Assembly: GCA_044450345.1 (NCBI GenBank)
Contig: JBIOIY010000003.1
Span: forward strand, 122,646-186,645
Length of the DNA: 64,000 nt
Reading direction: 5' to 3'
Origin: Thermodesulfovibrionales bacterium
Lineage (GTDB): Bacteria > Nitrospirota > Thermodesulfovibrionia > Thermodesulfovibrionales > UBA6898
Of this stretch, positions 5,101-25,391 are shown in pieces. Every line of letters starts with the position of its first letter. Position 1 is the first letter of the stretch. The notes beneath the pieces were generated by a model that was given only the letters and a program-made list of their open reading frames with translations, was not told the origin of the DNA and made no database searches. The translations under genes and the position numbers were made by a program.

Positions 5101-5155
5101 GTAACAGAAAATTAACACTCCTTTAATAATCCATTAACAGACCGTTTGCTATGCT
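5101..5155 (+). promoter_or_regulatory. Pho-box-like promoter: four repeats at 11-bp period plus -10 TATGCT
   Basis: TAA cores at 5102, 5113, 5124, 5135 (extra one at 5080); -10 at 5150-5155. Confidence 0.75.
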
Positions 5156-5174
5156 ACTGACCAGGGAGGCAACT

Positions 5175-5363
5175 ATGAATATACAATACATTATCTGTCC
5201 CCATCTTAAAGGCAGTTATGACGGAGCGGTCTGCAGCAGCGTCAGCAAGTTGATCAAGAACATAGAAGACGTCACCATTAAATTGTGTATGGGCAGGCAT
5301 TACGAGGTATGCTCGATATATCGGGAGTCTCTGCTCCCTCAGGAGCCTGTCAGTGCCATTTAA
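5175..5363 (+). CDS. Small four-Cys protein
   Basis: SD GGGAGG; CPHL..C..LC..CSIY. Confidence 0.65.
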   Translation: MNIQYIICPHLKGSYDGAVCSSVSKLIKNIEDVTIKLCMGRHYEVCSIYRESLLPQEPVSAI

Positions 5364-5567
5364 GATATGACGCGGACAAGGAAGTCAGTTAGGCCTCTTT
5401 GGCATTTCACGGATTGCCGATGTGTCGATCTTACTCGCCGTCGCCTTGCAAAATTCAGTTCGGACCAGCCGGAAAAATTTCATATTCCCTTAACTTAAAT
5501 GACATCATGCCGTAAAAACCAAAATGATATCCTTAAACTGGATTGTATTTGGAAGAAGGAAACTCGA

Positions 5568-5861
5568 ATGATCACCTATATCATCAAACATCATGTCCCG
5601 GGGCAGATAAGGCTGGATGTTCCTGTATTGAGAAAAATTGCCGAGTATCGGCTAAAAAAGATATCGAAGGCCGTGACAAGGCTTCCCGTCTTTACGGGAA
5701 TAAGAGACCTTACGGTAAATCCAGGGAACGGCAGCGTAGCTATTGAATATGACACCGAAGTTGTCGATATCATAGATTATCTGGAAGACATGGCAGTTAT
5801 TGTCGAAACGCTGGATTGTCTGGAAGGACAAACGCTGGATTGTCCGGAAGGACACCGATGA
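5568..5861 (+). CDS. HMA2-like domain protein
   Basis: HHVPGQIRL...VNPGNGSVAIEYD; 24-bp tandem duplication at 5806-5853. Confidence 0.7.
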   Translation: MITYIIKHHVPGQIRLDVPVLRKIAEYRLKKISKAVTRLPVFTGIRDLTVNPGNGSVAIEYDTEVVDIIDYLEDMAVIVETLDCLEGQTLDCPEGHR

Positions 5862-5872
5862 AGGAGAAAGAT

Positions 5873-6034
5873 ATGGCTTGTATTGATTATCTGGAGACAG
5901 AGGCAAGGTGTTCGAGAGGGATCCCGGTCGCGCATCTTTTCAGGCGTTTCTTCTGTGAGTCAAAGCCTGAAAAATGCCCGATTGTCTTGTGGGAAGTATC
6001 TTCTCGGGCGATAGATAACACTAAATCATCCTAA
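5873..6034 (+). CDS. Small four-Cys protein
   Basis: SD AAGGAG; MAC..C..FC..CPIV. Confidence 0.55.
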   Translation: MACIDYLETEARCSRGIPVAHLFRRFFCESKPEKCPIVLWEVSSRAIDNTKSS

Positions 6035-6044
6035 GGAGGAAGCC

Positions 6045-6224
6045 ATGCAGTGCCCGAATCTTTTGAAATGGGTAATATCATCATGCAAAGCCGTGGAGAG
6101 ACCCTATGTCCCGAGCCTTTTTGAGCTGGAGGAGTATTGTAGCACCGGAGATCACAGGAAGTGTCCTTTTTACATGAGAGACATCGTCAGGCCCAATACT
6201 GTGAGGGATAAAGTGTCCGCATAA
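6045..6224 (+). CDS. Small four-Cys protein, 59 aa (absent from the ORF track)
   Basis: SD AAGGAGG; MQCPNLLKWVISSCKAVERPYVPSLFELEEYCSTGDHRKCPFY... Confidence 0.7.
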   Translation: MQCPNLLKWVISSCKAVERPYVPSLFELEEYCSTGDHRKCPFYMRDIVRPNTVRDKVSA

Positions 6225-6484
6225 CATCTCAAGACTTAGTCTGATAATCCCACTTCTATGGAGAAAAAGGCAGCGTTAAAGAGGGCTCGCGTGGGTCTCA
6301 GGTGTACGCGGTAACCCCTTCATGCATCGCTGACCACTACCATTAAATAGTATCCCCGGCATGAATAAAGTGCCACGGTTTTGCGGCAGAGCTTAATAGG
6401 TAAGTAATGAAAGAAGTGTTAGACAATGTGCCGTTTCAGGCGATAGACTGAACTATATATTAAGGATTCAAGGAGAGTATTCGT

Positions 6485-6778
6485 ATGGGATTGCTTGATG
6501 ATGTATTTAAAGGCGGCAATGTTATAACGGGCTTGGCTATCGGCATCGGAGCAGCGGTGCTTGGACCGGTTGTATTGCCTATATTGGCCGGGGCTGCGAA
6601 ACCTTTGGCAAAGGCCGCGATAAAGGGCGGCCTTGCGCTGTGTGCAAAAGGAAAGGAGTCAGCTGCCGAGTTCGGCGAGGTCTTTGAAGATATTGTTGCA
6701 GAAGCGAAAGCGGAACTCGCGGAAGAGCACGAAAAGGCAATTCCTGTTCCGCCTACCGAAGCGGAACAAAGTGTCTAA
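6485..6778 (+). CDS. DUF5132-like small membrane protein (GxxxG helix plus amphipathic tail)
   Basis: TGLAIGIGAAVLGP...KPLAKAAIKGG...EDIVAEAKAEL. Confidence 0.75.
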   Translation: MGLLDDVFKGGNVITGLAIGIGAAVLGPVVLPILAGAAKPLAKAAIKGGLALCAKGKESAAEFGEVFEDIVAEAKAELAEEHEKAIPVPPTEAEQSV

Positions 6779-7256
6779 TATCCCGGAAGCATTTATAGGC
6801 CATAAGATGACGGGCAGGTTGAGACTAAGGGTCCCGTCGAGAAGAGGAGATGGCGCATATCTGGGAAAAATCACTGAGGAATTCTCATCTCTCCCGGGCA
6901 TTGCGCAGGTAATCGTGAACACCGAAACATCGAGCGTTCTCTTCCTGCATAATCTTTCAGAAGACGCAATTATGGGACATCTCAGTGCAAGCGGTCTGTT
7001 CAGAATTTCGGGGGCTCCCACAGGTCAAGGAGACGTGCATAGCGGAGTCAAAGGATGTTTTCGGGAGATGTCCCGCAAAGTCGAGAAGGCGACGGGAGGA
7101 ACGATGGGTATCAGTGAAGTTGCCTTCCTTGCGCTGTTCGGCGCCGGGGTCATGCAGATAGGTCGGGGGAATTTTACTGCGATCCCCTGGTACACGGCAT
7201 TTTGGTATGCGCTTAATATCTTTCTGAAATCAGACGCACAGAAGGCCGGGGAATAG
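6771..7256 (+). CDS. HMA2-like domain protein with C-terminal membrane segment
   Basis: H..TGRLRLRV...VNTETSSVLFLH; tail GVMQIGRGNFTAIPWYTAFWYA; GTG start overlaps the previous stop. Confidence 0.7.
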   Translation: MSNIPEAFIGHKMTGRLRLRVPSRRGDGAYLGKITEEFSSLPGIAQVIVNTETSSVLFLHNLSEDAIMGHLSASGLFRISGAPTGQGDVHSGVKGCFREMSRKVEKATGGTMGISEVAFLALFGAGVMQIGRGNFTAIPWYTAFWYALNIFLKSDAQKAGE

Positions 7257-7384
7257 CTGTACTCATCCTGTCTGAAGGTGAAGGCGCAATAAACCCGGAG
7301 AGTTCTATTTTTTCATCAGCCTTTTGAAAAAGATGAATGGCTCAGTCAAAAAGTAACTTTTCTCAACAGAGAAGGAGGTCAGTT

Positions 7385-8065
7385 ATGTCTCAGGAAAAAG
7401 TCATGCGCGGCACTCGTTACGCAGAAGAGGTAAGCGAGGCCGGGACGACCGTAAAAGAGGGCGTAGTCAGCAGCCTTAAAGGTCTCAATGAGATTGAGGC
7501 GGAAATCGTGAGCCTCGTGAGGAACACGGTTTCCAACACTTTGCGTGCAACGGGAGAGGTGGCGATCGAAAGTATCTCCATTTCGAAAGACGTCATCAAG
7601 GGGGCTATCCAGGCCACAGAGGAGGTTGGAACAGGACTTATCCTGAGCACGAAAAGTGTTGCCAAAGGGGTGATCATGGGGGTGAGTGATGTAGGCGGCG
7701 ATGTGGTAGCTGTTGCAGGCCAGACAGTAAAAGGCGCGGTAAAGGGGGCCGCTGAAGTCGGCGCGGATGTCGCCCTTGTTGCAAGGAGAGCGGTCGATGG
7801 CGTCATCGAGGCAACAAAGGAGATAGGGGGGAATGTGGAAGATGTCGCGAAAGTGGCAGTCGGAGGGGCGATTGAGGCTGCAGGGACAATAGGTAATACG
7901 GCGGTGAAGGCTGTTAGGGAGATGCTCGTCGGCGTGGTCGAGGGCGTAAAGGAGATTGCGAGCGCAGCTCTGCCTAAACCGAGGACCTCCACACCGGAGA
8001 CAAAAGCGCCTGCATCAAAACCGGTTGTTGCGGAAAAAGCGGCTGCGACCAGGAAAAAGAAGTAA
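7385..8065 (+). CDS. 22-residue amphipathic-repeat protein (copy 1)
   Basis: SD AAGGAGG; periodic V.G.I.A..E[VI]G units; basic Pro/Ala-rich tail. Confidence 0.8.
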   Translation: MSQEKVMRGTRYAEEVSEAGTTVKEGVVSSLKGLNEIEAEIVSLVRNTVSNTLRATGEVAIESISISKDVIKGAIQATEEVGTGLILSTKSVAKGVIMGVSDVGGDVVAVAGQTVKGAVKGAAEVGADVALVARRAVDGVIEATKEIGGNVEDVAKVAVGGAIEAAGTIGNTAVKAVREMLVGVVEGVKEIASAALPKPRTSTPETKAPASKPVVAEKAAATRKKK

Positions 8066-8077
8066 GAATAATACCCC

Positions 8078-11000
8078 GTGGTTCGGCCTGTACACGTTGC
8101 GGTAAGAGGAAGGGCCCGCTTTAAAGTAGCGGGCCTTTATCGGTCTCCCTTACTCAAAGATCGGATTGAACTCACCCTTAATTCACTTGACGGAATAAGA
8201 GAGGCATCGGCCAACACACATACAGGCAATGTTCTTGTATATTTCAATTCTGACAATACTCCCGGGTCAATCGCATCGGCAATAGCAGCGGCAGTGTATG
8301 GCTACAGATCTCAGCATTGTAACAATCATTCTCCGGAAAATAAAGAAGACGCAGACGGCATCATACCCTATCGGCGGAAAGAAGCTCCCGGAGAGCAAGG
8401 CAGGCCTGTTGTTACGAGGAGGAAATTAAGGAAGAGCATCATCAAGGCAGAGGAACAGAATCCTGATCCCTGGCACCAGATGGATGCGCGTGAAGTGGCG
8501 GGAAAGTTTGGCACATCCCAGCACTACGGGCTTCCCAATGACATCGCAAAGACGAATCTGAAGCGGTATGGTCCCAATGTCCTTCCGGAGGCGGTGCCCC
8601 GCTCCGGGTTAAGCATTTTCCTCGGCCAGTTTAACTCACTTCCTGTGGCACTGCTCGGCGTTGCTGCCGGGATTTCTATAGCCACGGGAGGCGTCGCCGA
8701 TGCGATCGTAATTGCCGGCGTGGTGGTCATCAACGCAGTAATAGGGTATGGGACCGAAACCCAGACCGAAAAGACCATCCATGCATTGAAAAGCCTTGTC
8801 AGACCTTCTGCCACGGTCAAGCGGGATGAACAAATTATAGAACTCGGAGCAGAGGAAGTCGTCCCAGGAGATCTGCTGATCCTCAGACCGGGCAGTTACG
8901 TGCCGGCAGACGCAAGACTGCTGGAGACGTATCACCTGAGTATCGACGAGTCCGCACTTACGGGAGAGAGTCTCCCTGTGATCAAAACAAGTTTGCCTTG
9001 CGAGGTTGAAGAAATCCCCCTTGCAGACAGGGTCAATATGGTCTATATGGGGACACTCGTGACCGGCGGGCAAGGGATCGCCGTGGTCGTGGCAACGGGC
9101 AGGTTTACCGAGATAGGAAAGATCCAGGCGCTTGTAGGAGAGGCAGAATCTCCGGACACCCCGATGGAGCGGCAGCTTCATAAAATGGGCACACAGCTTG
9201 TCTTTATAAGCGGAGCTGTCTGCGGACTTGTCTTTATCGTCGGACTTCTGCGCGGATACGGCTTTTTAGAGATGCTCAAGAGTTCCATATCTCTTGCCGT
9301 TGCCGCAGTCCCGGAGGGACTCCCTACTGTTGCAACTACAACCCTCGCCTTAGGTATAAGGGACATGAGGCGGCATAACGTGCTCATCAGGCATCTTAAT
9401 GCGGTCGAAACACTGGGGGCCGTACAGACGATCTGTCTTGACAAGACGGGAACAATCACGATGAACAGGATGTCGGTAGTCGCCGTCCATACCGGCATGA
9501 AACGATATGAAGTCTCAAATGGGGCGATCACGGCTTCCCGGGAGAAGGTGAGCCCCTATTCAGTCGACGAACTCCTTAGGCTGCTGCACGTGAGCGTGCT
9601 CTGCAGCGAGAGCGAGGTCGAAAGAGAAAAGGGTACTTATGCGGTCAGCGGCTCTCCGACCGAAAACGCCCTGATCTATATGGCGTTGAACGCCGGTATC
9701 AATGCCGTTTCTCTTAGAGAGAGCTTCCCCGTGTTGAGCATCACTCATCGTTCGGAAAGTCGCAATTACATGTCTACCGTCCACAAATCCGAGAGTGGAC
9801 CAGTCATCATTGCGGTAAAGGGGAGCCCCGGCGAGGTCCTTTCAATCTGCAACTGGCACATGAAGGGCGGAGAGAAGCTTCCGTTGACGGAGGAGGACAT
9901 GCTTCTCATAGAGACGGAAAATGAACGCATGGCCGGTCAGGCGCTCAGGGTCCTCGGCGTTGCCTATTCATCGCGGGACGATGAGGAAGCCCTCTCCGAA
10001 GATAGAAAAGATCTTCATGAAGACCTGATATGGCTCGGCCTCGTCGGCATGGCAGACCCCATCAGGGAAAATGTGAAAGAACTGGTCCACGGGTTCCACG
10101 AAGCCGGAATCGATACGGTCATGATAACGGGAGACCAGAGCCCCACCGCATATGCTATTGGAAAGGAATTGAATCTGAGCAATAACGGACACCTCGAAAT
10201 CCTTGATTCTACGCACCTTGCGAATATCGAGCCCGAGGTCATGAAGGCCCTCTGTGAGAGGATACACGTCTTTGCCCGCGTCAGTCCTGCACATAAGCTC
10301 CAGATTGTCCAAGCGCTCCAGTCCGCCGGGAAAGTGGTTGCGATGACCGGAGACGGTATCAACGACGGCCCGGCGCTCAAGGCAGCGGATATAGGGATCG
10401 CCATGGGCCACACAGGCACTGATGTCGCCCGCGAGGTGGCTGACGTGATTATTGAAGACGACAATCTCGAAACAATGCTTATCGCGGTAAGCAGGGGAAG
10501 GACAATCTATAACAATATCCGGAAATCAGTCCACTTCCTGCTGTCCACAAACCTCAGCGAGATCATGGTGATGTTCACGGCGATCTCGACAGGTCTTGGC
10601 CAGCCGCTCAATGCGATGCAGCTTCTCTGGATCAATCTTATCACGGACATTGCTCCGGGACTGGCCCTTGCCCTTGAACTTCCGGAGCCGGATGTGTTGA
10701 GCCGTCCCCCCCGGGACCCACACGAGCCGATTGTCAGAAATTCCGATTTCAAGCGGATAGCTTTCGAGTCGGCAATGCTTTCCGCGGGCTCCCTGGGGGC
10801 TTACGGGTATGGCATTGCACGCTATGGAATAGGACCGCGGGCTGGTTCGGTTGCATTCCTCAGCCTTACGGCAGGACAGCTCCTTCACGCTCTGAGCTGC
10901 CGCTCTGAGCAACACAGCATGTTCAGCGCCGAGAGACTGCCACGGAACAAGTATCTTGAAGTGGCACTGGGCGGTTCCTTTGCGCTCCAGATACTGGCGA

Positions 11001-11137
11001 TGACTGTCCCCGGGCTGAGGAGACTTTTGGGAATAGGTCCAATCAGTATCCTCGATGCTCTTGTGATCGGCGGAAGCGCTGCTTTTCCGCTTCTCGTAAA
11101 CGAGGCGACAAAATCCCCCTTGAGGTTGGCAAGATGA
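8078..11137 (+). CDS. P2A (SERCA-like) cation-transporting P-type ATPase with N-terminal HMA2-like domain
   Basis: TGES, VPEGLP, DKTGT, KGSP, TGD, GDGIND, STNLSE and QLLWINLITD; N-terminus H.AVRGRARF...ANTHTGNVLVYF. Confidence 0.9.
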   Translation: MVRPVHVAVRGRARFKVAGLYRSPLLKDRIELTLNSLDGIREASANTHTGNVLVYFNSDNTPGSIASAIAAAVYGYRSQHCNNHSPENKEDADGIIPYRRKEAPGEQGRPVVTRRKLRKSIIKAEEQNPDPWHQMDAREVAGKFGTSQHYGLPNDIAKTNLKRYGPNVLPEAVPRSGLSIFLGQFNSLPVALLGVAAGISIATGGVADAIVIAGVVVINAVIGYGTETQTEKTIHALKSLVRPSATVKRDEQIIELGAEEVVPGDLLILRPGSYVPADARLLETYHLSIDESALTGESLPVIKTSLPCEVEEIPLADRVNMVYMGTLVTGGQGIAVVVATGRFTEIGKIQALVGEAESPDTPMERQLHKMGTQLVFISGAVCGLVFIVGLLRGYGFLEMLKSSISLAVAAVPEGLPTVATTTLALGIRDMRRHNVLIRHLNAVETLGAVQTICLDKTGTITMNRMSVVAVHTGMKRYEVSNGAITASREKVSPYSVDELLRLLHVSVLCSESEVEREKGTYAVSGSPTENALIYMALNAGINAVSLRESFPVLSITHRSESRNYMSTVHKSESGPVIIAVKGSPGEVLSICNWHMKGGEKLPLTEEDMLLIETENERMAGQALRVLGVAYSSRDDEEALSEDRKDLHEDLIWLGLVGMADPIRENVKELVHGFHEAGIDTVMITGDQSPTAYAIGKELNLSNNGHLEILDSTHLANIEPEVMKALCERIHVFARVSPAHKLQIVQALQSAGKVVAMTGDGINDGPALKAADIGIAMGHTGTDVAREVADVIIEDDNLETMLIAVSRGRTIYNNIRKSVHFLLSTNLSEIMVMFTAISTGLGQPLNAMQLLWINLITDIAPGLALALELPEPDVLSRPPRDPHEPIVRNSDFKRIAFESAMLSAGSLGAYGYGIARYGIGPRAGSVAFLSLTAGQLLHALSCRSEQHSMFSAERLPRNKYLEVALGGSFALQILAMTVPGLRRLLGIGPISILDALVIGGSAAFPLLVNEATKSPLRLAR

Positions 11138-12345
11138 AAAAAGACTTCATATTTACATCCGAATCGGTTACCGAAGGCCATCCTGACAAACTCTGTGACC
11201 AGATCAGCGACGCACTTGTCGACCACTTCCTTCAGCAGGACCCCTTTTCGCGGGTCATTGCCGAGTGCGCCGTATCAACAGCGATCATTTTCATCGCCGC
11301 GAGGTTTTCATCCGACGCCAGTGTCGATTTCCCGAATATCGCCAGACAGGTCATCAACCAGATCGGGTATGACCAGCAGGCTTTTAACGCGAAGACCTGC
11401 AGCATCGTCACAAGCCTCAAAGAACTGCCCTCCGCAGAGGACCAGCGCTTTGACGAGAGGAATCTGACGGAAGATGAAATTGACGCTATCCCCGTCCGTA
11501 ATCAGGTCACCGTATTCGGATTTGCCTGCAACCAGACACCCTCGCTAATGCCCCTTCCGATCTGGCTCGCCCATCGACTGGCACGAAAACTTACCGCAGT
11601 GAGACTCCAAAAAGTGCTTCCCTATCTGGCGCCCGACGGAAAAACCCAGGTCAGCGTGGAGTATAAGAATGGAAAGCCCTACCGGATCCACACCATAACG
11701 GTCATAGCCAGTCAGAACAAGACGGAGAAGTCGGGCGGTCCAGACCTTAAGAGACTTTATGATGATATGCTGGATACCGTCATTCGTCCCGCCTTTCTTG
11801 ACGAGGAGATCAGACCCGATGCCGGCACAAGGATATTCATAAACCCCGATGGTCCTTTTATCACGGGCGGACCCTCAGTGCATTCAGGGCTCACAGGGAG
11901 GAAGAATGCGATCGACACCTATGGTGAATATTCCCGGCAAAGCGGCGCGGCCCTCAGCGGCAAGGACCCTCTTCGGATAGACAGAATCGGCGCGTATGCC
12001 GCCCGGTATGCGGCAAAGAATATCGTTGCCGCGGGCATCGCCGACGAATGTGAAATTCAGTTGAGCTATTCCATAGGGCTGTCCCGTCCAGTAAGCATTC
12101 AGGTAGAGACATTCGGCACAGGTCGGATTTCCGACGAAGAGATTTCCAGAATTATCGAAGGCCTGTTTGATTTCCGCCTCGCAGGGATTGTCCGCCAGTT
12201 CAACCTCAGATTTCTCCCCTCCATAATCAAGGGAGGCTTTTACAGGAAACTTGCCTCTTATGGTCATGTTGGCAGAATGGATATCGGTCTTCCCTGGGAA
12301 TTGACGGATAAGGCCGGCATACTTCGTGACGAAGTTGCCGGGTGA
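11134..12345 (+). CDS. Methionine adenosyltransferase (MetK) paralogue with divergent active site
   Basis: FTSESVTEGHPDK, DGKTQV, GLTGRK, SGKDP and YGH are present; the GAGDQG signature is replaced by PVRNQV; ATGA overlap with the ATPase. Confidence 0.85.
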   Translation: MKKDFIFTSESVTEGHPDKLCDQISDALVDHFLQQDPFSRVIAECAVSTAIIFIAARFSSDASVDFPNIARQVINQIGYDQQAFNAKTCSIVTSLKELPSAEDQRFDERNLTEDEIDAIPVRNQVTVFGFACNQTPSLMPLPIWLAHRLARKLTAVRLQKVLPYLAPDGKTQVSVEYKNGKPYRIHTITVIASQNKTEKSGGPDLKRLYDDMLDTVIRPAFLDEEIRPDAGTRIFINPDGPFITGGPSVHSGLTGRKNAIDTYGEYSRQSGAALSGKDPLRIDRIGAYAARYAAKNIVAAGIADECEIQLSYSIGLSRPVSIQVETFGTGRISDEEISRIIEGLFDFRLAGIVRQFNLRFLPSIIKGGFYRKLASYGHVGRMDIGLPWELTDKAGILRDEVAG

Positions 12346-12439
12346 GAGACTTATGATAGCCGGGTACGTGTCGATCCTTCCGGTGGCCCGTTAAGAAGGC
12401 ATCTACCGGTTGTAAGCGCCCCGCTTTTTTTGTTCTCCT

Positions 12440-12494
12440 GTAACGAAAACTTCACGGTAGCGTCAACTTCCCTTAACGTTCCATCCGTTACAAT
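12440..12494 (+). promoter_or_regulatory. Pho-box-like promoter plus -10 TACAAT
   Basis: GTAAC/TTCAC/GTCAA/TTAAC with cores at 12441, 12452, 12463, 12474; -10 at 12489. Confidence 0.65.
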
Positions 12495-12528
12495 TCACCT
12501 GTCAATTTCTTCGACAGGGAGGTGCGAC

Positions 12529-13323
12529 ATGTATCACGATGCCAAAACGAATTTTATGATGACGCAGGGTCGCTTTCTGGTAAAGCTGGCGGAGGACCGA
12601 AGTGAGTTGGAAAAGGCTCTGAAACTCAGATTTGAGGTGTTCAATCTCGAACTCAAGAAAGGGCTCGCCATATCCTACCTTAATGGGATGGACACGGATG
12701 AATATGATAAGTACTGCGCCCATCTCATCGTAATCGACGCTGACTTCGACAGGGTGGTCGGGACCTACCGGTTATTACCTGGTTTTGTTGCTGAATTCAA
12801 TGTCGGATACTATTCGGAAAACGAGTTCGATATGACCAACATAAAGAACCTGCAAGGGGAAAAACTTGAGCTCGGCCGATCATGCGTGCACAGGGACTAT
12901 CGAAACGCCCAGGTCATTAACCTGTTGTGGGCGGGTATTGCAAGGTACGTGGAATTGTATAACATCCGTTATTTATTCGGATGTGCAAGCCTTTGTTCCT
13001 CGGTCACGGAAGAGGTCAGCCTTGTCTATTCCTACCTCTCCCGTCATCACCCTGCCGAACCTCGTTATTCCGTATATCCGCTGCAGAAAGTAACTGGACT
13101 GCGCATGCTCCAGGTCGAAGACCGGAGAGAGGCATTGAAAATGCTGCCGCCGCTCATAAAAGGGTATACGTCCCTTGGCGCAAACATTTGCGGAAAGCCA
13201 TCGTACGATGCCATTTTCGGAACTGCTGATTTCTTCGTTCTCCTCCAGACGGAAAAAATTATGGCCCGCTACCGGAAGAAGTATTTCCAGGAACAAGAGG
13301 AAGCGTTGTGCCCCGTATCATGA
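12529..13323 (+). CDS. olsB: GNAT N-acyltransferase, OlsB-like (ornithine/amino-lipid synthesis)
   Basis: LRFEVF, D.DEYD.YC.HL, VGTYRL, YSENEF, LELGRSCV, LLWAGI, FGCAS and PPLIKGY. Confidence 0.75.
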   Translation: MYHDAKTNFMMTQGRFLVKLAEDRSELEKALKLRFEVFNLELKKGLAISYLNGMDTDEYDKYCAHLIVIDADFDRVVGTYRLLPGFVAEFNVGYYSENEFDMTNIKNLQGEKLELGRSCVHRDYRNAQVINLLWAGIARYVELYNIRYLFGCASLCSSVTEEVSLVYSYLSRHHPAEPRYSVYPLQKVTGLRMLQVEDRREALKMLPPLIKGYTSLGANICGKPSYDAIFGTADFFVLLQTEKIMARYRKKYFQEQEEALCPVS

Positions 13324-14114
13324 GGGCGGGCAAAGCACTGTGCTTGGCGGTGTTGCATCTCGCATGTCTGTTGACCGGGTTGGTCATCGCGGTCCCCTTT
13401 CTTGTCAGCCGCGACCGGAAGGCCAGAGCAAGGGCCGGGGGTATGATGATCTGGGCAAGATGCGCGTGTTGGATACTGGGCATAAGGATTCATCGCACGG
13501 GTTCATGTCCTCCCGTCAAGGGCATGTTTGTGGTCAGCAACCATAGCAGTTATCTCGATATCATTGTTCTCGGAAGTTTATTTCCCGCAGTTTTTTTGGC
13601 GAAGAAGGAAGTCGGGTCCTGGCCCCTGATCGGGTGGCTTGCGCGGCTTGCAGGTACGCGCTTTGTCGTGCGGGAATCGAGAAAGTCCACAGCGGACGCG
13701 CTTGAAAATATAAAACGGCTACTGGATTCCGGAATGAATGTGATCGTTTTTCCTGAGGCTACTACCAATGATGGGACAATGGTCAGGGACTTCAAGAGTT
13801 CCCTTTTTAAAGCTCCTGTTGACATGAAGATACCGGTGCTGCCGGTCAGCGTCATGTACTCGCACGTGAACTCAATCGCCATGACCCCGGAGATGCGGGA
13901 CTCTGTTGCGTGGTACGGGGAAATGGACCTTATTCCTCATCTTTGGGATGTGCTTGGCCTGAAGCGGATTGATGTCAGGGTGCACCGCTGCCCTGTGATA
14001 CGGGAGGTCCTGGCTGAGGACAGCTCCAAAACCAGGAAGATACTAGCCGCTTTCGCCCATAGCGAAGTCATGTCAGGATTGGAAAGTCTGAGACTTGAGA
14101 TATCCTCTTCCTAA
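13308..14114 (+). CDS. Lysolipid acyltransferase (PlsC/OlsA family)
   Basis: NHSSYLD, FLAKKE, FPEATT and AWYG.M. Confidence 0.85.
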   Translation: MPRIMRAGKALCLAVLHLACLLTGLVIAVPFLVSRDRKARARAGGMMIWARCACWILGIRIHRTGSCPPVKGMFVVSNHSSYLDIIVLGSLFPAVFLAKKEVGSWPLIGWLARLAGTRFVVRESRKSTADALENIKRLLDSGMNVIVFPEATTNDGTMVRDFKSSLFKAPVDMKIPVLPVSVMYSHVNSIAMTPEMRDSVAWYGEMDLIPHLWDVLGLKRIDVRVHRCPVIREVLAEDSSKTRKILAAFAHSEVMSGLESLRLEISSS

Positions 14115-14148: not shown

Positions 14149-14487
14149 TCATTCTTCGCCAAATCCACCTTCAACAGCCTCGATTACCTTTTCCGCAACT
14201 CCCAGGGCTTTTTCCGTTGTTTTCTCTACCCGCTCGTCGCACGTTTCTGCCTCGGTTAGACGGAAATAGCCGTTTTTTTCGAGAATCCCGATGATCTGTT
14301 CGCAATTGATTTTTTTCTCATCAAAGTGAATTATCGCACTTCCAGTAGCAGCATGAATCTCTGTCGCCGATATGCCATTAAGTCCTTTTATGAATGTTTC
14401 AAACTCTTTCGTTTTTACGGCATTATCATGAAGTATGGGTGATTCAATTCTCATCCTGCCAGGAACGTAATGAATATAGTATTTCAT
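14149..14487 (-). CDS. HMA2-like domain protein
   Basis: MKYYIHYVPGRMRI...ATGSAIIHFD. Confidence 0.75.
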   Translation of the reverse strand: MKYYIHYVPGRMRIESPILHDNAVKTKEFETFIKGLNGISATEIHAATGSAIIHFDEKKINCEQIIGILEKNGYFRLTEAETCDERVEKTTEKALGVAEKVIEAVEGGFGEE

Positions 14488-14598
14488 ATATAACCATGAT
14501 ACCACTCCACTTATATCAAATGATAGAATTTATTGAATGTCATAATCCTCCCTTCTACAGGCCTTCTGCAATGTCTACTATAAAGGTCCCAACGCTGA

Positions 14599-16060: not shown

Positions 16061-16657
16061 ATGAAAGCTGAAGCAACCAGTAACGTAAATGTTCGTGAAG
16101 AAATCGGCAAGGCGGGAACGACCGTCAAAGACGGAATGATCAGCAGCTTGAAAGGGATTAATGAGATCGAAGCAGAGATTGTAAGCCTGGTCCGAAACAC
16201 AGTATCCCATACGTTTCATGCAGGCGGCGAAGTCGCACAGGAGAGTCTCTCACTCACCAGGGAGGTGGTGAAAGGCGCAATAACTGCCGCTGAGGAAGTC
16301 GGCACAGGCCTGATCATGAGCACAAAAAGTGTAGCAAAAGGGATAGTGATGGGAGTAAGCGATGTCGGCGGTGATGCGGTTGCTGCCGCAAGCCAGACTG
16401 TAAAAGGCGCGGTAAAGGGAGCCGCGGAGGTCGGCGCTGATGTTGCGCTGGTAGCCAGGAGAACAGTTGATGGCGTCATCGAGGCGACCAAAGAAATAGG
16501 TGGAAATGCGGAAGACGTTGCGAAAGTGGTTGTGGAGGGTGCAATCGAAGCTGCGGGCAGTATCGGAAACACTGCGGTGAAAGCGGTAAGGGAAATGTTG
16601 GTCGGCGTTGTTGAGGGAGTAAAGGAAGTTGCAAATGCGGCCCTTCCGAAGCGATAA
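16061..16657 (+). CDS. 22-residue amphipathic-repeat protein (copy 2, paralogue of 7385-8065)
   Basis: Long stretches identical to copy 1, e.g. NEIEAEIVSLVRNTVS and TVKGAVKGAAEVGADVALVARR. Confidence 0.8.
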   Translation: MKAEATSNVNVREEIGKAGTTVKDGMISSLKGINEIEAEIVSLVRNTVSHTFHAGGEVAQESLSLTREVVKGAITAAEEVGTGLIMSTKSVAKGIVMGVSDVGGDAVAAASQTVKGAVKGAAEVGADVALVARRTVDGVIEATKEIGGNAEDVAKVVVEGAIEAAGSIGNTAVKAVREMLVGVVEGVKEVANAALPKR

Positions 16658-17798: not shown

Positions 17799-18308
17799 TC
17801 AGTTGAAAAAAAGGTAGTCGCTACCTTTTTTGTCCCCATGACACGATATGCAGCTTTCCGGCTTGCCCGATTCCAGCACGTATCCGTTAAGGGAATCATA
17901 CTTTACCCAGAACCAGTCACCCGCCTCAGGATTATAGCCTTTCACCTTAAACATCACGGTCAGCGCCTTCAGTTTCTTGTCGGCGGCATATTCTTCATTG
18001 ATAATGCAGGCTCCATCAGGCATTTCCTTAATCTCCTTGATGGAGGCGAACGCGGCATCGTTCACATAGGTTGTCTGGAACGGACTGTGGGGATCATTAC
18101 CCGCATGCAGTTTGCCTGTTCCCGGCCAGAGATTAAACCTCTCGTAATAAGGTTTAGGTAGCGTCATAAATTTGTAAAGCTTTGCAGCATCGGAACCGGG
18201 GTAAACAGTCTTGGTGCCGTCCACTTGGGTTTGATGGATAGCGTATGCACTATACACGCCACCAAGAACTAGAACTATCACCAGAAAAGTCAACAATGTC
18301 TTTCTCAT
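17799..18308 (-). CDS. Cytochrome P460/c'-beta family protein
   Basis: Signal peptide, PH...TYVN, MPDG, VM.K.KGY.PE.GDWFW and C-terminal CISCH. Confidence 0.8.
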   Translation of the reverse strand: MRKTLLTFLVIVLVLGGVYSAYAIHQTQVDGTKTVYPGSDAAKLYKFMTLPKPYYERFNLWPGTGKLHAGNDPHSPFQTTYVNDAAFASIKEIKEMPDGACIINEEYAADKKLKALTVMFKVKGYNPEAGDWFWVKYDSLNGYVLESGKPESCISCHGDKKGSDYLFFN

Positions 18309-18478
18309 CTTATTAACCTCCTCAGATTTTTTTTTCGTGTCTCTCATGGAGAGCTCTCGTCGCATACCCGAAATCAAGCAGAGCGGCCCCAACGAATACT
18401 GCCATCGCAATCTTCTCACCGTGAACCCCTCTCATCGCTGCCTTTCAGCCGCAAAATACTCTACCTCCCATTAACTTC

Positions 18479-18532
18479 AGTGTAGCATTCCATTGTTACA
18501 GGAACATATCAGAACTGTTAAATGAGCGTTAA
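18479..18532 (-). promoter_or_regulatory. Pho-box-like promoter (3 of 4 lattice positions) plus -10 TACACT
   Basis: GTTA on the + strand at 18495, 18517, 18528; minus-strand -10 at 18484-18479. Confidence 0.55.
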
Positions 18533-19164: not shown

Positions 19165-19911
19165 ATGCAGATAGTATCAGTAGCAAACCATAAGGGTGGA
19201 GTCGGGAAGACTACCTCGGCAGTCAATATTGCCGCCTGTTGGGGAGAGACGGGGCAAAGGGTTCTCCTTGTTGATCTCGACCCTCAGGGAAGTGCAAGCA
19301 TGTCTTTCGGCATAGAGAATGACGGAAACGATATCCTGCAGGCATTACAGAAGACCATAGCATTGCCTGTAGTGAGTACTCAAGCCGAAGGCGTGGACCT
19401 GGTTCCTGCCGGGCCTCATCTCGCGTCCGCCAGACAGAGATTTACCGGGGCAATAGGCAAGGAACTGCTGCTTCGTTGCCTGAAACAAATGCAGGATGGT
19501 TGGGACAGGGTAATTATAGATTGCCCGCCCAGTTTAGGGATTCTCACCATGGCTGCTTTGTGGGCAAGCAATCATGTCATTATCCCTGTTGAAGCAAACT
19601 ATTTGGCGATGAGCGGCCTTAAACAGATGGTGGATACCGTTAAATCTGTGGGAAATGATCACCCTGGCATCGCTATCAGGGCCGTCATACCATGCCGGGC
19701 TCACCCAAGGCGCAGAGTTCATCAGGCGGTCATGGAACAGGTTGAAAAGCTTTTCCCGGAGAAAGTCTCGCCGATCGTCCGGGAGAACGCAGCTCTGGCC
19801 GAAGCTCCCGGACGCGGGCGGCCGATCATACTTTCTGCCCCTAAATCCCACGGGGCCGAAGATTACCGACAAGTTGCATTATGGTTGTCTGACCATATCG
19901 GGAAGATCTGA
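19165..19911 (+). CDS. ParA/Soj-family ATPase (no parB alongside)
   Basis: NHKGGVGKTT, DLDPQG, IIDCPPSLG and LAEAP. Confidence 0.9.
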   Translation: MQIVSVANHKGGVGKTTSAVNIAACWGETGQRVLLVDLDPQGSASMSFGIENDGNDILQALQKTIALPVVSTQAEGVDLVPAGPHLASARQRFTGAIGKELLLRCLKQMQDGWDRVIIDCPPSLGILTMAALWASNHVIIPVEANYLAMSGLKQMVDTVKSVGNDHPGIAIRAVIPCRAHPRRRVHQAVMEQVEKLFPEKVSPIVRENAALAEAPGRGRPIILSAPKSHGAEDYRQVALWLSDHIGKI

Positions 19912-19988: not shown

Positions 19989-20042
19989 TTCACAGAGGTT
20001 TAATAAAATCGTAATGATAAGGTAATTTGAGGATTGTAAAAT
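19989..20042 (+). promoter_or_regulatory. Pho-box-like promoter plus -10 TAAAAT
   Basis: Cores at 19990 (TCA), 20001, 20012, 20023; -10 at 20037. Confidence 0.7.
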
Positions 20043-20579: not shown

Positions 20580-21056
20580 ATGTTGACAAAGGATGGATTG
20601 AAGGAATCAGCAAAAGGAAAATCGGCAAAGCCGGTTTCTCCCATCGCAACCAAACAAAATCATGTCAAGAAGGATCCAATAAAAAAGGGGAGGGGCCTAC
20701 AAGAGATAGCGTCTGAGCATGAGACTCAAAGCAAGTCGGAAAAAGGAAATGGAGGCATCGAGAGAGAGTATTCATCCCCGGCCTCTTCCTGCAAGGTAAC
20801 CTTTCGACTGCCCAGGGAAGTAGCCGGCGCTGCCAAAAAGGCTTCACTCGTCGGAGACTTCACCCACTGGGAAAAAGGCGCGCAGCCGATGAAGAGGCTC
20901 AAAAGCGGTCATTTTGAAATAACGCTTGAGTTACCGTCCAACGCGGAATATAGGTTCCGGTATCTCATTGATGATTGTCGCTGGGAGAATGATCGGCATG
21001 CCGATGCATTCAAACCAAATCCCTATGGATGTGAGGACTCGGTAATTATTTTGTGA
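20580..21056 (+). CDS. Glycogen-binding (isoamylase early-set/CBM48-like) protein
   Basis: VTFRLP, LVGDF..W, Y.FRYLID..W.ND. Confidence 0.8.
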   Translation: MLTKDGLKESAKGKSAKPVSPIATKQNHVKKDPIKKGRGLQEIASEHETQSKSEKGNGGIEREYSSPASSCKVTFRLPREVAGAAKKASLVGDFTHWEKGAQPMKRLKSGHFEITLELPSNAEYRFRYLIDDCRWENDRHADAFKPNPYGCEDSVIIL

Positions 21057-24347: not shown

Positions 24348-24716
24348 TTACAAAAGGATTCCCAGTAATGACAACGCAGTGCCCTCAAATGCCCTGTCCA
24401 CAAAAACCCCGAAAGCGGCCCTACCCAGGACCTTCCCTGCCTTGGATGCCGCTGTCTGGATATACTGGTCGTTTGATATAGCCTTAGTCTCATCGAAATA
24501 GCCCGCCCTCTGAAGGGTATTGATTATGTCTTTGTCATTGATTTGGGATGCATTGTAGTGTATCGTCAGGCTTCCGGTGGTGTTGTTGATATCGATTGTG
24601 GCTATTCCTATGAGGCCGGAAAGCAACATTTTTATATGATCGTGGGTATTTTTGTTCTTGAACAGAGGGTTCTTCAGGCGTAATCTCCCCGGCGTGGTGT
24701 GAATGTAATAGTTCAT
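24348..24716 (-). CDS. HMA2-like domain protein with hydrophobic tail
   Basis: MNYYIHTTPGRLRL...NNTTGSLTIHYN; tail ALSLLGILL. Confidence 0.75.
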   Translation of the reverse strand: MNYYIHTTPGRLRLKNPLFKNKNTHDHIKMLLSGLIGIATIDINNTTGSLTIHYNASQINDKDIINTLQRAGYFDETKAISNDQYIQTAASKAGKVLGRAAFGVFVDRAFEGTALSLLGILL

Positions 24717-24717
24717 G

Positions 24718-25017
24718 CTATTTATCCTCCTCCTTCATTCTGAACTTCCTGAAATGCTTGCAATCAGGATATCCTGAACACCGGAATCTGATCACGTCAC
24801 CTTCTAATTTGTAGACGTGCATGGGCTTGCCGCATTCCTTACATATAGGTTTCCCCTTGACTTCAGAAACCTTTGATCCATTTGTGAACTGCTTCCCGCA
24901 AATTATGCAGAGAAACCTCTGTTTCCCGGTCCCTGCCTTGCCATACCGGTATACTGCCTCCGAGTTACAGGAGGGACAGGACGTGTCCGCGTTTACCTTC
25001 TCAAGCACACTAATCAT
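24718..25017 (-). CDS. Double zinc-ribbon protein (InsA-like plus topoisomerase C4-like)
   Basis: CPSC..YG....KQRFLC..C and C.ECG..M...CSGYPDC. Confidence 0.7.
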   Translation of the reverse strand: MISVLEKVNADTSCPSCNSEAVYRYGKAGTGKQRFLCIICGKQFTNGSKVSEVKGKPICKECGKPMHVYKLEGDVIRFRCSGYPDCKHFRKFRMKEEDK

Positions 25018-25023
25018 GGTTAC

Positions 25024-25078
25024 ATTATATATCGATAGGTGTTACATTCAAGTGAAGGCAATGTTACATTTCGGTTAA
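25024..25078 (-). promoter_or_regulatory. Pho-box-like promoter plus -10 TATAAT, predicted leaderless
   Basis: GTTA/GTGA on the + strand at 25041, 25052, 25063, 25074; TATAAT at 25029-25024, 6 nt before ATG. Confidence 0.7.
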
Positions 25079-25199
25079 ATTTTTGGCTATGTGGTGCCCA
25101 ATTCGATATGGAAAAAGTCGGTACCATTGTGCAGGAATAATTTTTCACATGCGAATATTTTTGATACCACCTCTCTTTTGACATTTTCATCCACTTTTT

Positions 25200-25253
25200 A
25201 TAACGCAAACTTAATATTTCCTTAATATTGTTGTAACAATGCAATGCTATTTT
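25200..25253 (+). promoter_or_regulatory. Pho-box-like promoter (distal to pstS)
   Basis: TAA cores at 25201, 25212, 25223, 25234; -10 TATTTT at 25248. Confidence 0.65.
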
Positions 25254-25337
25254 AGATCACGTGGCCGATCTGCGTGAGTCTTGCTATCGTGAGTCTGAGG
25301 CGATAAAATGAAGGAGGAGGTGAGATTGTCAGGGGAT

Positions 25338-25391
25338 GTAATATGAATTTAACTTCCTTGTAACATTCTTGTAATAATTGGGCTGTATCCT
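25338..25391 (+). promoter_or_regulatory. Pho box and promoter of pstS
   Basis: TAA cores at 25339, 25350, 25361, 25372; -10 TATCCT at 25386. Confidence 0.8.

Follow-up and report, generated by a model that had tools for sequence, protein, structure and literature searches.

In a 64,000-nucleotide stretch of DNA from a Thermodesulfovibrionales bacterium (UBA6898; assembly GCA_044450345.1, contig JBIOIY010000003.1, positions 122,646-186,645 of the forward strand; genome completeness 91%), hereafter the window, we found an operon that is real, widely conserved and unstudied, and that joins a P2A-type P-type ATPase to a set of dedicated partner genes. The core operon (window 6485-12345) encodes, in this order, a DUF5132 protein, a CoBaHMA domain protein with two transmembrane helices (CoBaHMA-2TM), a protein built of 22-residue repeats, the pump, and a relative of the S-adenosylmethionine synthetase MetK. 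We lean towards the interpretation, somewhat more probable than its negation in our judgement, that these proteins would gather around the pump in a membrane assembly and, in response to phosphate limitation, clear a Ca2+-like ion from the cytosol. The five core genes are the following:

6485..6778, + strand: DUF5132 protein (Pfam DUF5132, E = 7.7e-15, 55.1 bits against a cut-off of 25)
6771..7256, + strand: CoBaHMA domain with a C-terminal two-helix membrane hairpin, a FezC-like architecture (HMA_2, E = 2.3e-10)
7385..8065 (frame 7337-8065), + strand: helical-repeat protein of no family (lag-22 self-similarity, AlphaFold2 model)
8078..11137, + strand: P2A-type (Ca2+-type) P-type ATPase with an N-terminal CoBaHMA domain (Pfam, NCBIfam and structure matches)
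11134..12345, + strand: MetK paralog (all three MetK domains in Pfam)

The sizeable + strand frames between 5151 and 12345 are all co-oriented, and the genes listed in the original prediction, which had been made by reading the sequence without database searches, were all found at their positions. The same is true of the overlaps of 8 nucleotides between the DUF5132 and CoBaHMA-2TM genes (6771 versus 6778) and of 4 nucleotides between the pump and MetK-like genes (11134 versus 11137). Upon scanning for the pump in one genome per species, we obtained 74 loci at 55-94% identity, in which the partners were sought in six-frame translations. Most of these loci are labelled Nitrospirota or Thermodesulfovibrionales, and the remaining labels are Candidatus Magnetominusculus, Brocadia, Loosdrechtia, Binatia, Syntrophales, Desulforhabdus and Chlorogloeopsis, with Desulforhabdus sp. 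TSK (L066) and Chlorogloeopsis fritschii PCC 6912 (L034) as named strains. Next to the 74 pumps we counted 72 MetK-like genes, 59 CoBaHMA-2TM genes, 58 DUF5132 genes and 58 repeat-protein genes, many of the misses being due to contigs that end early. An intact pump start preceded by at least 2,500 nucleotides of DNA is present in 52 loci; of these, 46 have the DUF5132 gene upstream on the same strand, 45 the CoBaHMA-2TM gene, 45 the repeat-protein gene and 40 all three. The MetK-like gene followed the pump in 69 of the 70 loci with room for it. The original prediction had staked itself on the conservation of this combination, and the combination is conserved, with identical gene order in loci labelled Nitrospirota, Thermodesulfovibrionales, Brocadia, Binatia, Syntrophales and Desulforhabdus. 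The repeat protein was not at its usual place in six loci with enough upstream DNA, three of which are Candidatus Magnetominusculus or similarly labelled bins. We found no description of the operon in the literature covered, which did not extend to Gaschignard et al. 2024 (on CoBaHMA; it may list CoBaHMA-pump fusions) or to the bioRxiv supplements.

The pump belongs to the P2A class. It carries the Pfam domains Cation_ATPase_N, E1-E2_ATPase, Cation_ATPase and Cation_ATPase_C, ranks highest in NCBIfam with PMR1-type and then SERCA-type Ca2+ pumps, and has as its closest solved structures Listeria LMCA1, human SPCA1 and then SERCA. In SERCA, residues of the membrane helices M4, M5, M6 and M8 act as Ca2+ ligands. 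When the window protein was aligned with 59 full-length orthologs (60 sequences), the catalytic motifs DKTGT, TGE(S) and TGDGxND were invariant or nearly so, and so were the ion-site residues within PEGLP, STNLSE and WINLITD, the motifs from which the original prediction had argued for a P2A rather than a P1B pump: the Glu of M4 PEGLP was present in 59 of the 60 sequences, the Asn and Glu of M5 and the Asn and Asp of M6 in all 60, and the residue before the M6 Asp was Ser or Thr (53/7). A search of the window pump for the P1B-6 hallmark HNx[ST] did not find it. The motifs originally named are therefore right and the pump is not of the P1B kind; Ca2+ is most likely the transported ion. We infer the ion rather than assign it outright, because the pump stays under the NCBIfam cut-offs and carries Gln at the position of SERCA Glu908, points to which we return below.

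What sets this pump apart is its N-terminus, which matches HMA_2 at E = 8.7e-6 and 26.2 bits, below the 30-bit cut-off. HMA_2 is the Pfam name of the CoBaHMA domain, described from calcyanins (PMC8890360 and bioRxiv 10.1101/2024.07.07.602159), and recognisable by an extra strand with a conserved His, conserved basic residues and the absence of a CxxC motif (PMC8890360). The pump domain agrees with this description: it keeps the pattern H-x4-GR-x-R-x-K, with His6 in 59 of the 60 sequences and Gly11, Arg12 and Arg14 in all of them, and has no CxxC. The source genome holds six HMA_2 matches, five of them in the window (two of these five below the 30-bit cut-off), and one DUF5132 gene. Among 301 sampled Nitrospirota genomes, 56 have HMA_2, and in at least 31 it lay inside a frame of at least 1,000 residues.

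The small membrane partners are related to those of P1B metal pumps. The DUF5132 protein consists of one GxxxG-rich membrane helix, a Lys-rich stretch and an acidic helix, and Pfam DUF5132 was matched by all 31 aligned orthologs. The protein at 6771-7256 (scanned as frame 6633-7256) covers positions 10-153 of the 154 of the HMA_2 profile, and therefore includes the membrane hairpin of that model. An NCBIfam scan of the small proteins gave no informative match, and a complex prediction of DUF5132 residues 36-92 with the CoBaHMA domain of the pump (residues 1-80) scored 0.24, under the 0.32 mark, which is uninformative for contact either way.

The original prediction had seen in these genes a ferrosome-like toolkit, of the sort that builds organelles for iron storage, placed on a different pump. 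According to the ferrosome preprint (bioRxiv 10.1101/2020.01.10.902569), FezB is a P1B-6 pump with an N-terminal Arg-rich motif, FezC an HMA domain with two membrane helices and FezA a small hydrophobic GxxxG protein; all three are enriched on ferrosomes, and no ferrosomes form after deletion of fezB and fezC. We compared the window operon with clusters recognised by the P1B-6 hallmark motifs (TM4 SCA and N-x18-HNx[S/T], as given in PMC13460109), in place of the experimentally studied FezA/B/C sequences. For this comparison, 301 genomes from the phylum of Desulforhabdus sp. TSK were sampled for HMA_2, and 20 regions around HMA_2 matches in frames of ~700-800 residues were taken for analysis. 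Twelve pumps in these regions had an SCA-like motif in TM4, ten of the twelve together with HNx[S/T], and their N-termini matched HMA_2 weakly, like that of the window pump. Beside the pump, a small frame matched a hidden Markov model (HMM) of the DUF5132 family in 8 of the 12 loci, being directly adjacent in seven. When the 31 DUF5132 orthologs were aligned with these 8 small proteins by hhalign, the match reached 93.4% (E = 2.5e-7) over 53 columns that span both the membrane helix and the acidic helix; on Pfam, three of the eight matched DUF6110 and none DUF1490. A 199-residue neighbour of one P1B-6-hallmark pump scored 142 bits over the whole HMA_2 model and has the architecture of 6771-7256, and an HMM of the CoBaHMA-2TM family matched full-length partners of P1B pumps at 65-88 bits. 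Hence, the profile similarity to Fez-type partners that the original prediction called for was found, with motif-recognised P1B-6 clusters as the object of comparison.

Related gene sets also surround other P1B pumps. In Nitrospirota, P1B pumps that begin with an HMA_2 domain and have DUF5132-like and CoBaHMA-2TM genes as neighbours include CPC-type and Cys-less kinds; those of loci L077-L083, considered as fez candidates, were rejected, as the P1B-6 hallmarks are missing and the pumps are CPC-type or Cys-less. In L079 (4157-10775) and L080, P1B-like pumps with an N-terminal CoBaHMA domain carry 'VSAPT' in TM4 in place of CPC/SPC; their flanks hold two DUF5132-like genes and the genes for CoBaHMA proteins and for a CoBaHMA-DUF454 protein, and in L079 a cax Ca/H exchanger and a Ca/Na antiporter follow the Cys-less pump. 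These Cys-less pumps may be an uncharacterised subgroup linked to calcium.

Overall, the profile comparisons support an accessory kit that would be common to several pump classes. A bolder form of this idea holds that CoBaHMA, DUF5132/FezA-like and CoBaHMA-2TM proteins make up an ancient, portable 'cation-compartment kit' placed on varied transporters, which in anaerobes builds a Ca-storing vesicle with a coat of repeat protein and a MetK-derived enzyme of new substrate; we regard this form as rather unlikely. If it were true, the transporters served would comprise P1B-6 iron-type pumps, CPC-type P1B pumps, Cys-less P1B-like pumps beside Ca exchangers, Ca/H exchangers and P2A pumps.

Such a kit need not imply an organelle, because PacL scaffolds, which share the DUF5132-like layout, cluster their pump in the plasma membrane. 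As reviewed in PMC13460109, PacL has one membrane helix followed by Glu/Ala repeats that form a cytosolic helix. It binds CtpC, a P1B-6-like pump, at the metal-binding domain, which lacks CxxC, and both the stability of CtpC and its clustering in the plasma membrane require PacL. The window operon could, by analogy, specify a plasma-membrane efflux platform in which PacL-like partners chaperone and cluster the pump and Ca2+ is exported to the periplasm under phosphate limitation, a serious possibility that in our estimate falls a little short of an even chance. It draws on the shared layout and on one small protein of a P1B/HMA_2 cluster that is borderline to both DUF5132 (E = 0.005) and DUF1490 (E = 0.009), the family of PacL. 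Furthermore, LMCA1, the closest solved pump, is annotated just as 'Calcium-transporting ATPase'. LMCA1 is a cell-membrane exporter. Two loci from the phylum of Desulforhabdus sp. TSK (L099 and L102) contain the P2A module and a CPC-type P1B pump together, each pump with an N-terminal HMA_2 match, an arrangement that recalls multi-pump effluxosomes. Export to the periplasm fits less well with the DUF5132 orthologs, none of which (0/31) matches DUF1490, and at least five conserved accessory genes are many for the chaperoning of one exporter; in addition, the available text on PacL operons (PMC13460109) describes them without CoBaHMA-2TM, repeat or MetK-like partners.

Alternatively, the Fez-like kit combined with a Ca2+-type pump might form vesicles loaded with Ca2+ (possibly Ba, Sr or Mn) as carbonate or orthophosphate, with the repeat protein as coat, a tentative reading that we think more likely wrong than right. 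The CoBaHMA-2TM gene and the hhalign match bring the architecture of the partner set nearer to that of Fez clusters than to that of PacL operons, ion transport by P2A pumps is directed out of the cytosol, as would suit a vesicle lumen, and Fez proteins are needed for the membrane-bounded ferrosomes (bioRxiv 10.1101/2020.01.10.902569). On the other side, the window pump lies outside the Fez pump class and no inclusion has been tied to these genes; the nearby ParA-like gene is unconserved (found near the module in 1 of 74 loci), and induction by phosphate shortage would be odd for a phosphate mineral. Chlorogloeopsis fritschii PCC 6912 forms intracellular amorphous calcium carbonate (iACC), and its genome encodes a pump 61% identical to that of the window, a MetK-like gene and 18 HMA_2 matches, which adds to the case for vesicles. 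At least seven of these HMA_2 matches stand at the start of frames of 660-1,050 residues, a large expansion of CoBaHMA fusions. PMC8890360 mentions this strain for its Ca/H antiporter only. In Microcystis aeruginosa PCC 7806, two DUF5132 genes, one CoBaHMA gene and one CoBaHMA-hairpin gene lie beside the iACC marker ccyA (calcyanin) and a Ca/H exchanger, and several of these DUF5132/CoBaHMA genes are co-expressed with ccyA and the exchanger (bioRxiv 10.1101/2024.07.07.602159), again in favour of a mineral-related role. The module is also present in magnetotactic Nitrospirota (L053, L060), and other magnetotactic Thermodesulfovibrionales make intracellular Ca-Ba-Mg carbonates (PMC12710302), but the paper on these carbonate formers contains no mention of an ATPase (PMC12710302). 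Taken together, periplasm and internal vesicle appear about equally probable as the destination of the ion.

The repeat protein has no family. Its self-comparison peaks sharply at lags 22 and 44, corresponding to about eight 22-residue repeats followed by a basic disordered tail, and an AlphaFold2 model from 32 sequences (mean predicted local distance difference test score 76, ~90 in the core) forms one helix per repeat. A Foldseek search of the Protein Data Bank returned designed helical-repeat proteins only, and a profile search against 1.84 billion representatives found 834 relatives at E ≤ 0.001, 78 of them at E ≤ 1e-30. The start at 7385, as originally proposed, is supported by Met17 of the 7337 frame, which at least 90% of the 32 aligned sequences conserve.

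The MetK-like enzyme is a variant, as the original prediction had it: a divergent extra copy that scores 375.6 bits against the TIGR01034 cut-off of 309.4 (NCBIfam), compared with 596 bits for the canonical MetK elsewhere in the genome (contig C40). We aligned 72 variant sequences with the canonical copy and found the motifs GHPDK..D, DGKTQV, GLTGRK and SGKDP..DR kept. Other motifs are rebuilt: GAGDQG became ..(N)Q(V), with Asn and Val; GD.GLTGRK became VHSGLTGRK, with Asp replaced by His in at least 90% of the sequences; and GEI(S/T)T became ARF, with a 10-residue insertion in the loop before it. In total, three conserved acidic positions are replaced, changes that are shared across the 72 sequences. 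We take the replaced acidic residues to be those that hold the amino group of methionine in canonical MetK, and because of their replacement the enzyme probably handles ATP and triphosphate but not methionine. An ESM Atlas search with the protein returned ordinary MetK clusters only.

The module lies in a phosphate island that comprises OlsB/OlsA-like ornithine-lipid genes, pstSCAB-phoU, a PHP-family hydrolase and an HpnI-like glycosyltransferase. The features of this island nearest to the core operon are:

5101..5139, + strand: Pho-box-like array of four 11-base-pair-phased KTAAYA half-sites, with three overlapping exact matches, before the gene at 5151
6393..6409, + strand: Pho-box-like pair with one mismatch, 76 nucleotides ahead of the core operon
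12430-13323 and 13308-14114, + strand: OlsB-like and OlsA-like ornithine-lipid genes (NCBIfam, E = 1.2e-52 and 4.6e-52, each below its equivalog cut-off)

We counted KTAAYA-N5-KTAAYA 16 times in the window, where 1.75 occurrences would be expected, with arrays similar to that at 5101 before pstS (25211-25238 and 25338-25376) and at four further places. The link to pst recurs elsewhere: in 19-23 of the 74 loci, pst genes are no more than 8 kb away from the pump, far above chance for a single-copy locus. The two half-sites proposed before the core were found at 6393-6409, and Pho control of the 6485-12345 core is a possibility that we treat as unproven. The sequence TAGACA-18-TAGACT at 6420-6449, put forward as a promoter of the core's own, is present as described but is not evidence of a promoter, because such 9-of-12 matches are no commoner than in shuffles (8 found against 8.2 expected). 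The sequencing runs listed for 5101-12345 were DNA runs with small shares, and no RNA run was among them. The accessible part of a phosphate-limitation study of D. alaskensis makes no mention of the module.

The phosphate setting recalls acidocalcisomes, which load Ca2+ by a P-type pump, and the original prediction had proposed a Ca/Mg-(poly)phosphate store. The island with pstSCAB-phoU, the recurrence of pst near the module and a gene for an H+-pyrophosphatase ~58 kb away on the same contig would suit such an organelle. A polyphosphate store is weakened by the distribution of polyphosphate kinases: PPK1 and PPK2 were sought in the source genome and neither was found in its 91%-complete sequence, and PPK1, which is present in 50 of the 301 sampled Nitrospirota, occurs in only 2 of the 31 pump-bearing genomes listed with HMA_2 inside a frame of at least 1,000 residues. 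In the families where the pump is common, PPK1 was found in 1/23, 0/8, 0/6, 0/12 and 1/64 genomes (PPK2 was checked in the source genome only). Polyphosphate is thus unlikely as the counter-ion, and we consider an acidocalcisome-like Ca/Mg-polyphosphate organelle very improbable. As a separate observation, PPK1 is nearly confined to two Nitrospirota families (27/50 and 19/24) and was not found in most Thermodesulfovibrionales-side families sampled.

The lipid genes suggest yet another possibility, in which the pump does not move Ca2+ and the module serves membrane remodelling: the CoBaHMA domains would sense the loss of anionic phospholipid when ornithine lipid replaces it, and the product of the MetK-like enzyme would be an adenosylated compound, lipid-related or other. 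Binding of CoBaHMA to anionic lipids is a published hypothesis (bioRxiv 10.1101/2024.07.07.602159), and no partner is linked to the pump as tightly as the MetK-like gene (69/70 loci). The neighbouring lipid genes named in the original prediction do follow the operon here, but they stand beside the module in only 15 (OlsB) and 12 (OlsA) of the 74 loci and are absent from most. Moreover, the cation ligands of M4, M5 and M6 are kept as in SERCA, which favours a Ca2+-like ion, and we judge membrane remodelling improbable.

We suggest the following picture for the pump-centred assembly that we favour. The P2A pump would move Ca2+, or a close divalent cation (Mn2+, Sr2+ or Ba2+), out of the cytosol. 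The DUF5132, CoBaHMA-2TM and repeat proteins would stem from the same ancestral stock as the partners of P1B metal pumps, and the small membrane proteins would engage the pump, probably via its basic N-terminal CoBaHMA domain, and stabilise or cluster it in a specialised membrane patch whose cytosolic face the repeat protein would line. The translationally coupled MetK-like enzyme would retain ATP/triphosphate chemistry without the methionine pocket, and the module as a whole would form part of a phosphate-limitation gene set.

Several observations weigh against this picture. The pump scores 624.9 bits against a PMR1-type equivalog cut-off of 798.3 and likewise misses the SERCA-type cut-off (NCBIfam), and the position of SERCA Glu908 in M8 is Gln in 58 of the 60 sequences. 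Each of the Fez-side small proteins reaches only 13-22 bits with the DUF5132-family HMM, and Pfam DUF5132 was matched by three of the eight, below threshold, with a best E of 9.3e-4; for DUF1490, the lack of matches among the DUF5132 orthologs extends to E ≤ 0.1. Two Chlorogloeopsis loci have the pump and the MetK-like gene only, so that the small partners are not obligatory. Finally, the Pho-like box before the core is single and imperfect, and only 2 of 55 related loci carry a match to the pattern ahead of their DUF5132 gene, a weak test because the pattern was derived from the window genome.

Around the core operon and the phosphate features we annotated the following elements:

5151..5363 (alternative start 5175), + strand: small 4-Cys protein of 70 residues and no family; relatives in 22/74 loci
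5499..5861 (likely start 5568), + strand: soluble CoBaHMA (HMA_2) protein (Pfam HMA_2, E = 8.6e-7, 29.5 bits); relatives in 52/74 loci
5873..6034, + strand: second small 4-Cys protein of 53 residues, a candidate gene, weakly similar to the other 4-Cys frames
6045..6224, + strand: third small 4-Cys protein of 59 residues; relatives in 25/74 loci
12414..12426, + strand: terminator-like hairpin and T-run after the MetK-like gene, weak (5 pairs)
14149..14505, - strand: soluble CoBaHMA protein (HMA_2, E = 8.2e-13); relatives in 51/74 loci
16061..16657, + strand: second helical-repeat protein (82% identity with 7337-8065 across 185 residues)
24348..24716, - strand: CoBaHMA protein with a hydrophobic C-terminus, divergent from pstS (HMA_2 match at window 24507-24701)

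The three 4-Cys frames have a common C-x~10-C-x~17-C-x6-C pattern and are otherwise weakly similar; together they may be small metal-binding proteins of one family that is associated with the module. Terminator-like sites in the region of the MetK-like gene occur at only ~2x the shuffle mean. The second repeat-protein copy, 8 kb downstream among small genes without assignment, is devoid of the Lys/Pro-rich basic tail. The CoBaHMA protein and a zinc-ribbon-like Cys-rich protein are both transcribed divergently from pstS, with Pho-box-like arrays in the spacer that they share with it (24348-25017, - strand, and 25062-25376), and relatives of the zinc-ribbon-like protein occur in 31/74 loci. Between the halves of the island lie a ParA/MinD-type ATPase (19165-19911) and a frame that weakly matches the N-terminal part of a glycogen-branching enzyme (20580-21056), with a Pho-box-like array of three half-sites at 19989-20016. 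The frame at 17799-18419 (- strand) encodes a secreted-looking protein of 206 residues with one CxxCH haem-binding motif and a Pho-box-like pair just upstream (18516-18532); a relative was found in 1/74 loci. Of the neighbouring Mg transporters that had been claimed, the 'MgtE' at 22878-24152 matches only the cytosolic half of MgtE, namely the N-domain and CBS part (profile positions 12-250 of 450), and is therefore not a transporter on that evidence. An N-terminus of 180 residues and no family precedes the MgtE-like part, and no MgtE membrane domain was matched, so that a role as sensor or regulator is more probable for this protein than one as Mg2+ channel.

Bacterial calcium handling is, to our knowledge, poorly understood, and we know of no genes for intracellular calcium minerals outside cyanobacteria. 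The operon may mark a new bacterial way of handling or storing calcium. It ties a Ca-type pump to partners of ferrosomes, of mycobacterial effluxosomes and of cyanobacterial carbonate-granule candidate genes, and does so within a compact gene set of ~6 kb, which suggests that one accessory kit may be used by several pump classes. Two of its proteins have no described function, one made of the 22-residue repeats and the other a MetK whose substrate pocket is rebuilt.

Compared with known systems, the window pump resembles LMCA1, SPCA1 and SERCA in its domain set, in DKTGT and TGES, and in the M4 PEGLP Glu, the M5 Asn and Glu and the M6 Asn, Thr (Ser) and Asp, but differs from them by the extra N-terminal CoBaHMA domain, the Gln at the Glu908 position and the dedicated conserved partners, and it scores under the NCBIfam equivalog cut-offs. 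The MetK-like enzyme is like S-adenosylmethionine synthetase MetK in its three domains, family score and four kept motifs, and unlike it in the rebuilt predicted methionine pocket. Like PacL-Ctp of Mycobacterium tuberculosis, the operon encodes, upstream of a P-type pump with a CxxC-less N-terminal domain, a small protein that crosses the membrane once and has an acidic, helical part in the cytosol. However, PacL is a DUF1490 and the window protein a DUF5132 protein, the PacL pumps belong to P1B and transport Zn, Cd or Cu whereas that of the window is P2A, and, as far as the accessible text of PMC13460109 goes, PacL operons consist of the PacL gene and the pump, with no CoBaHMA-2TM, repeat or MetK-like partner, and give rise to a plasma-membrane platform, not an organelle.

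The neighbourhood of ccyA, with its iACC candidate genes, is similar in that DUF5132, CoBaHMA and CoBaHMA-hairpin proteins are encoded beside a Ca2+ transporter, and dissimilar in that, in the part of the preprint available, this transporter is a Ca/H exchanger instead of a P-type pump and neither a repeat protein nor a MetK-like gene appears. From the Fez cluster the operon differs in its P2A pump with Ca-type ligands and no N-x18-HNx[ST], in its phosphate rather than iron genes as neighbours, and in the repeat and MetK-like proteins as extra conserved partners, which the accessible portion of the Fez report does not mention; Fez organelles have been observed, whereas the window operon is known from its genes alone. 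In common, the two have an Arg-rich, CxxC-less HMA-type N-terminus on the pump, a partner composed of an HMA domain and two membrane helices, one or more small GxxxG membrane proteins, and an operon-like gene order.

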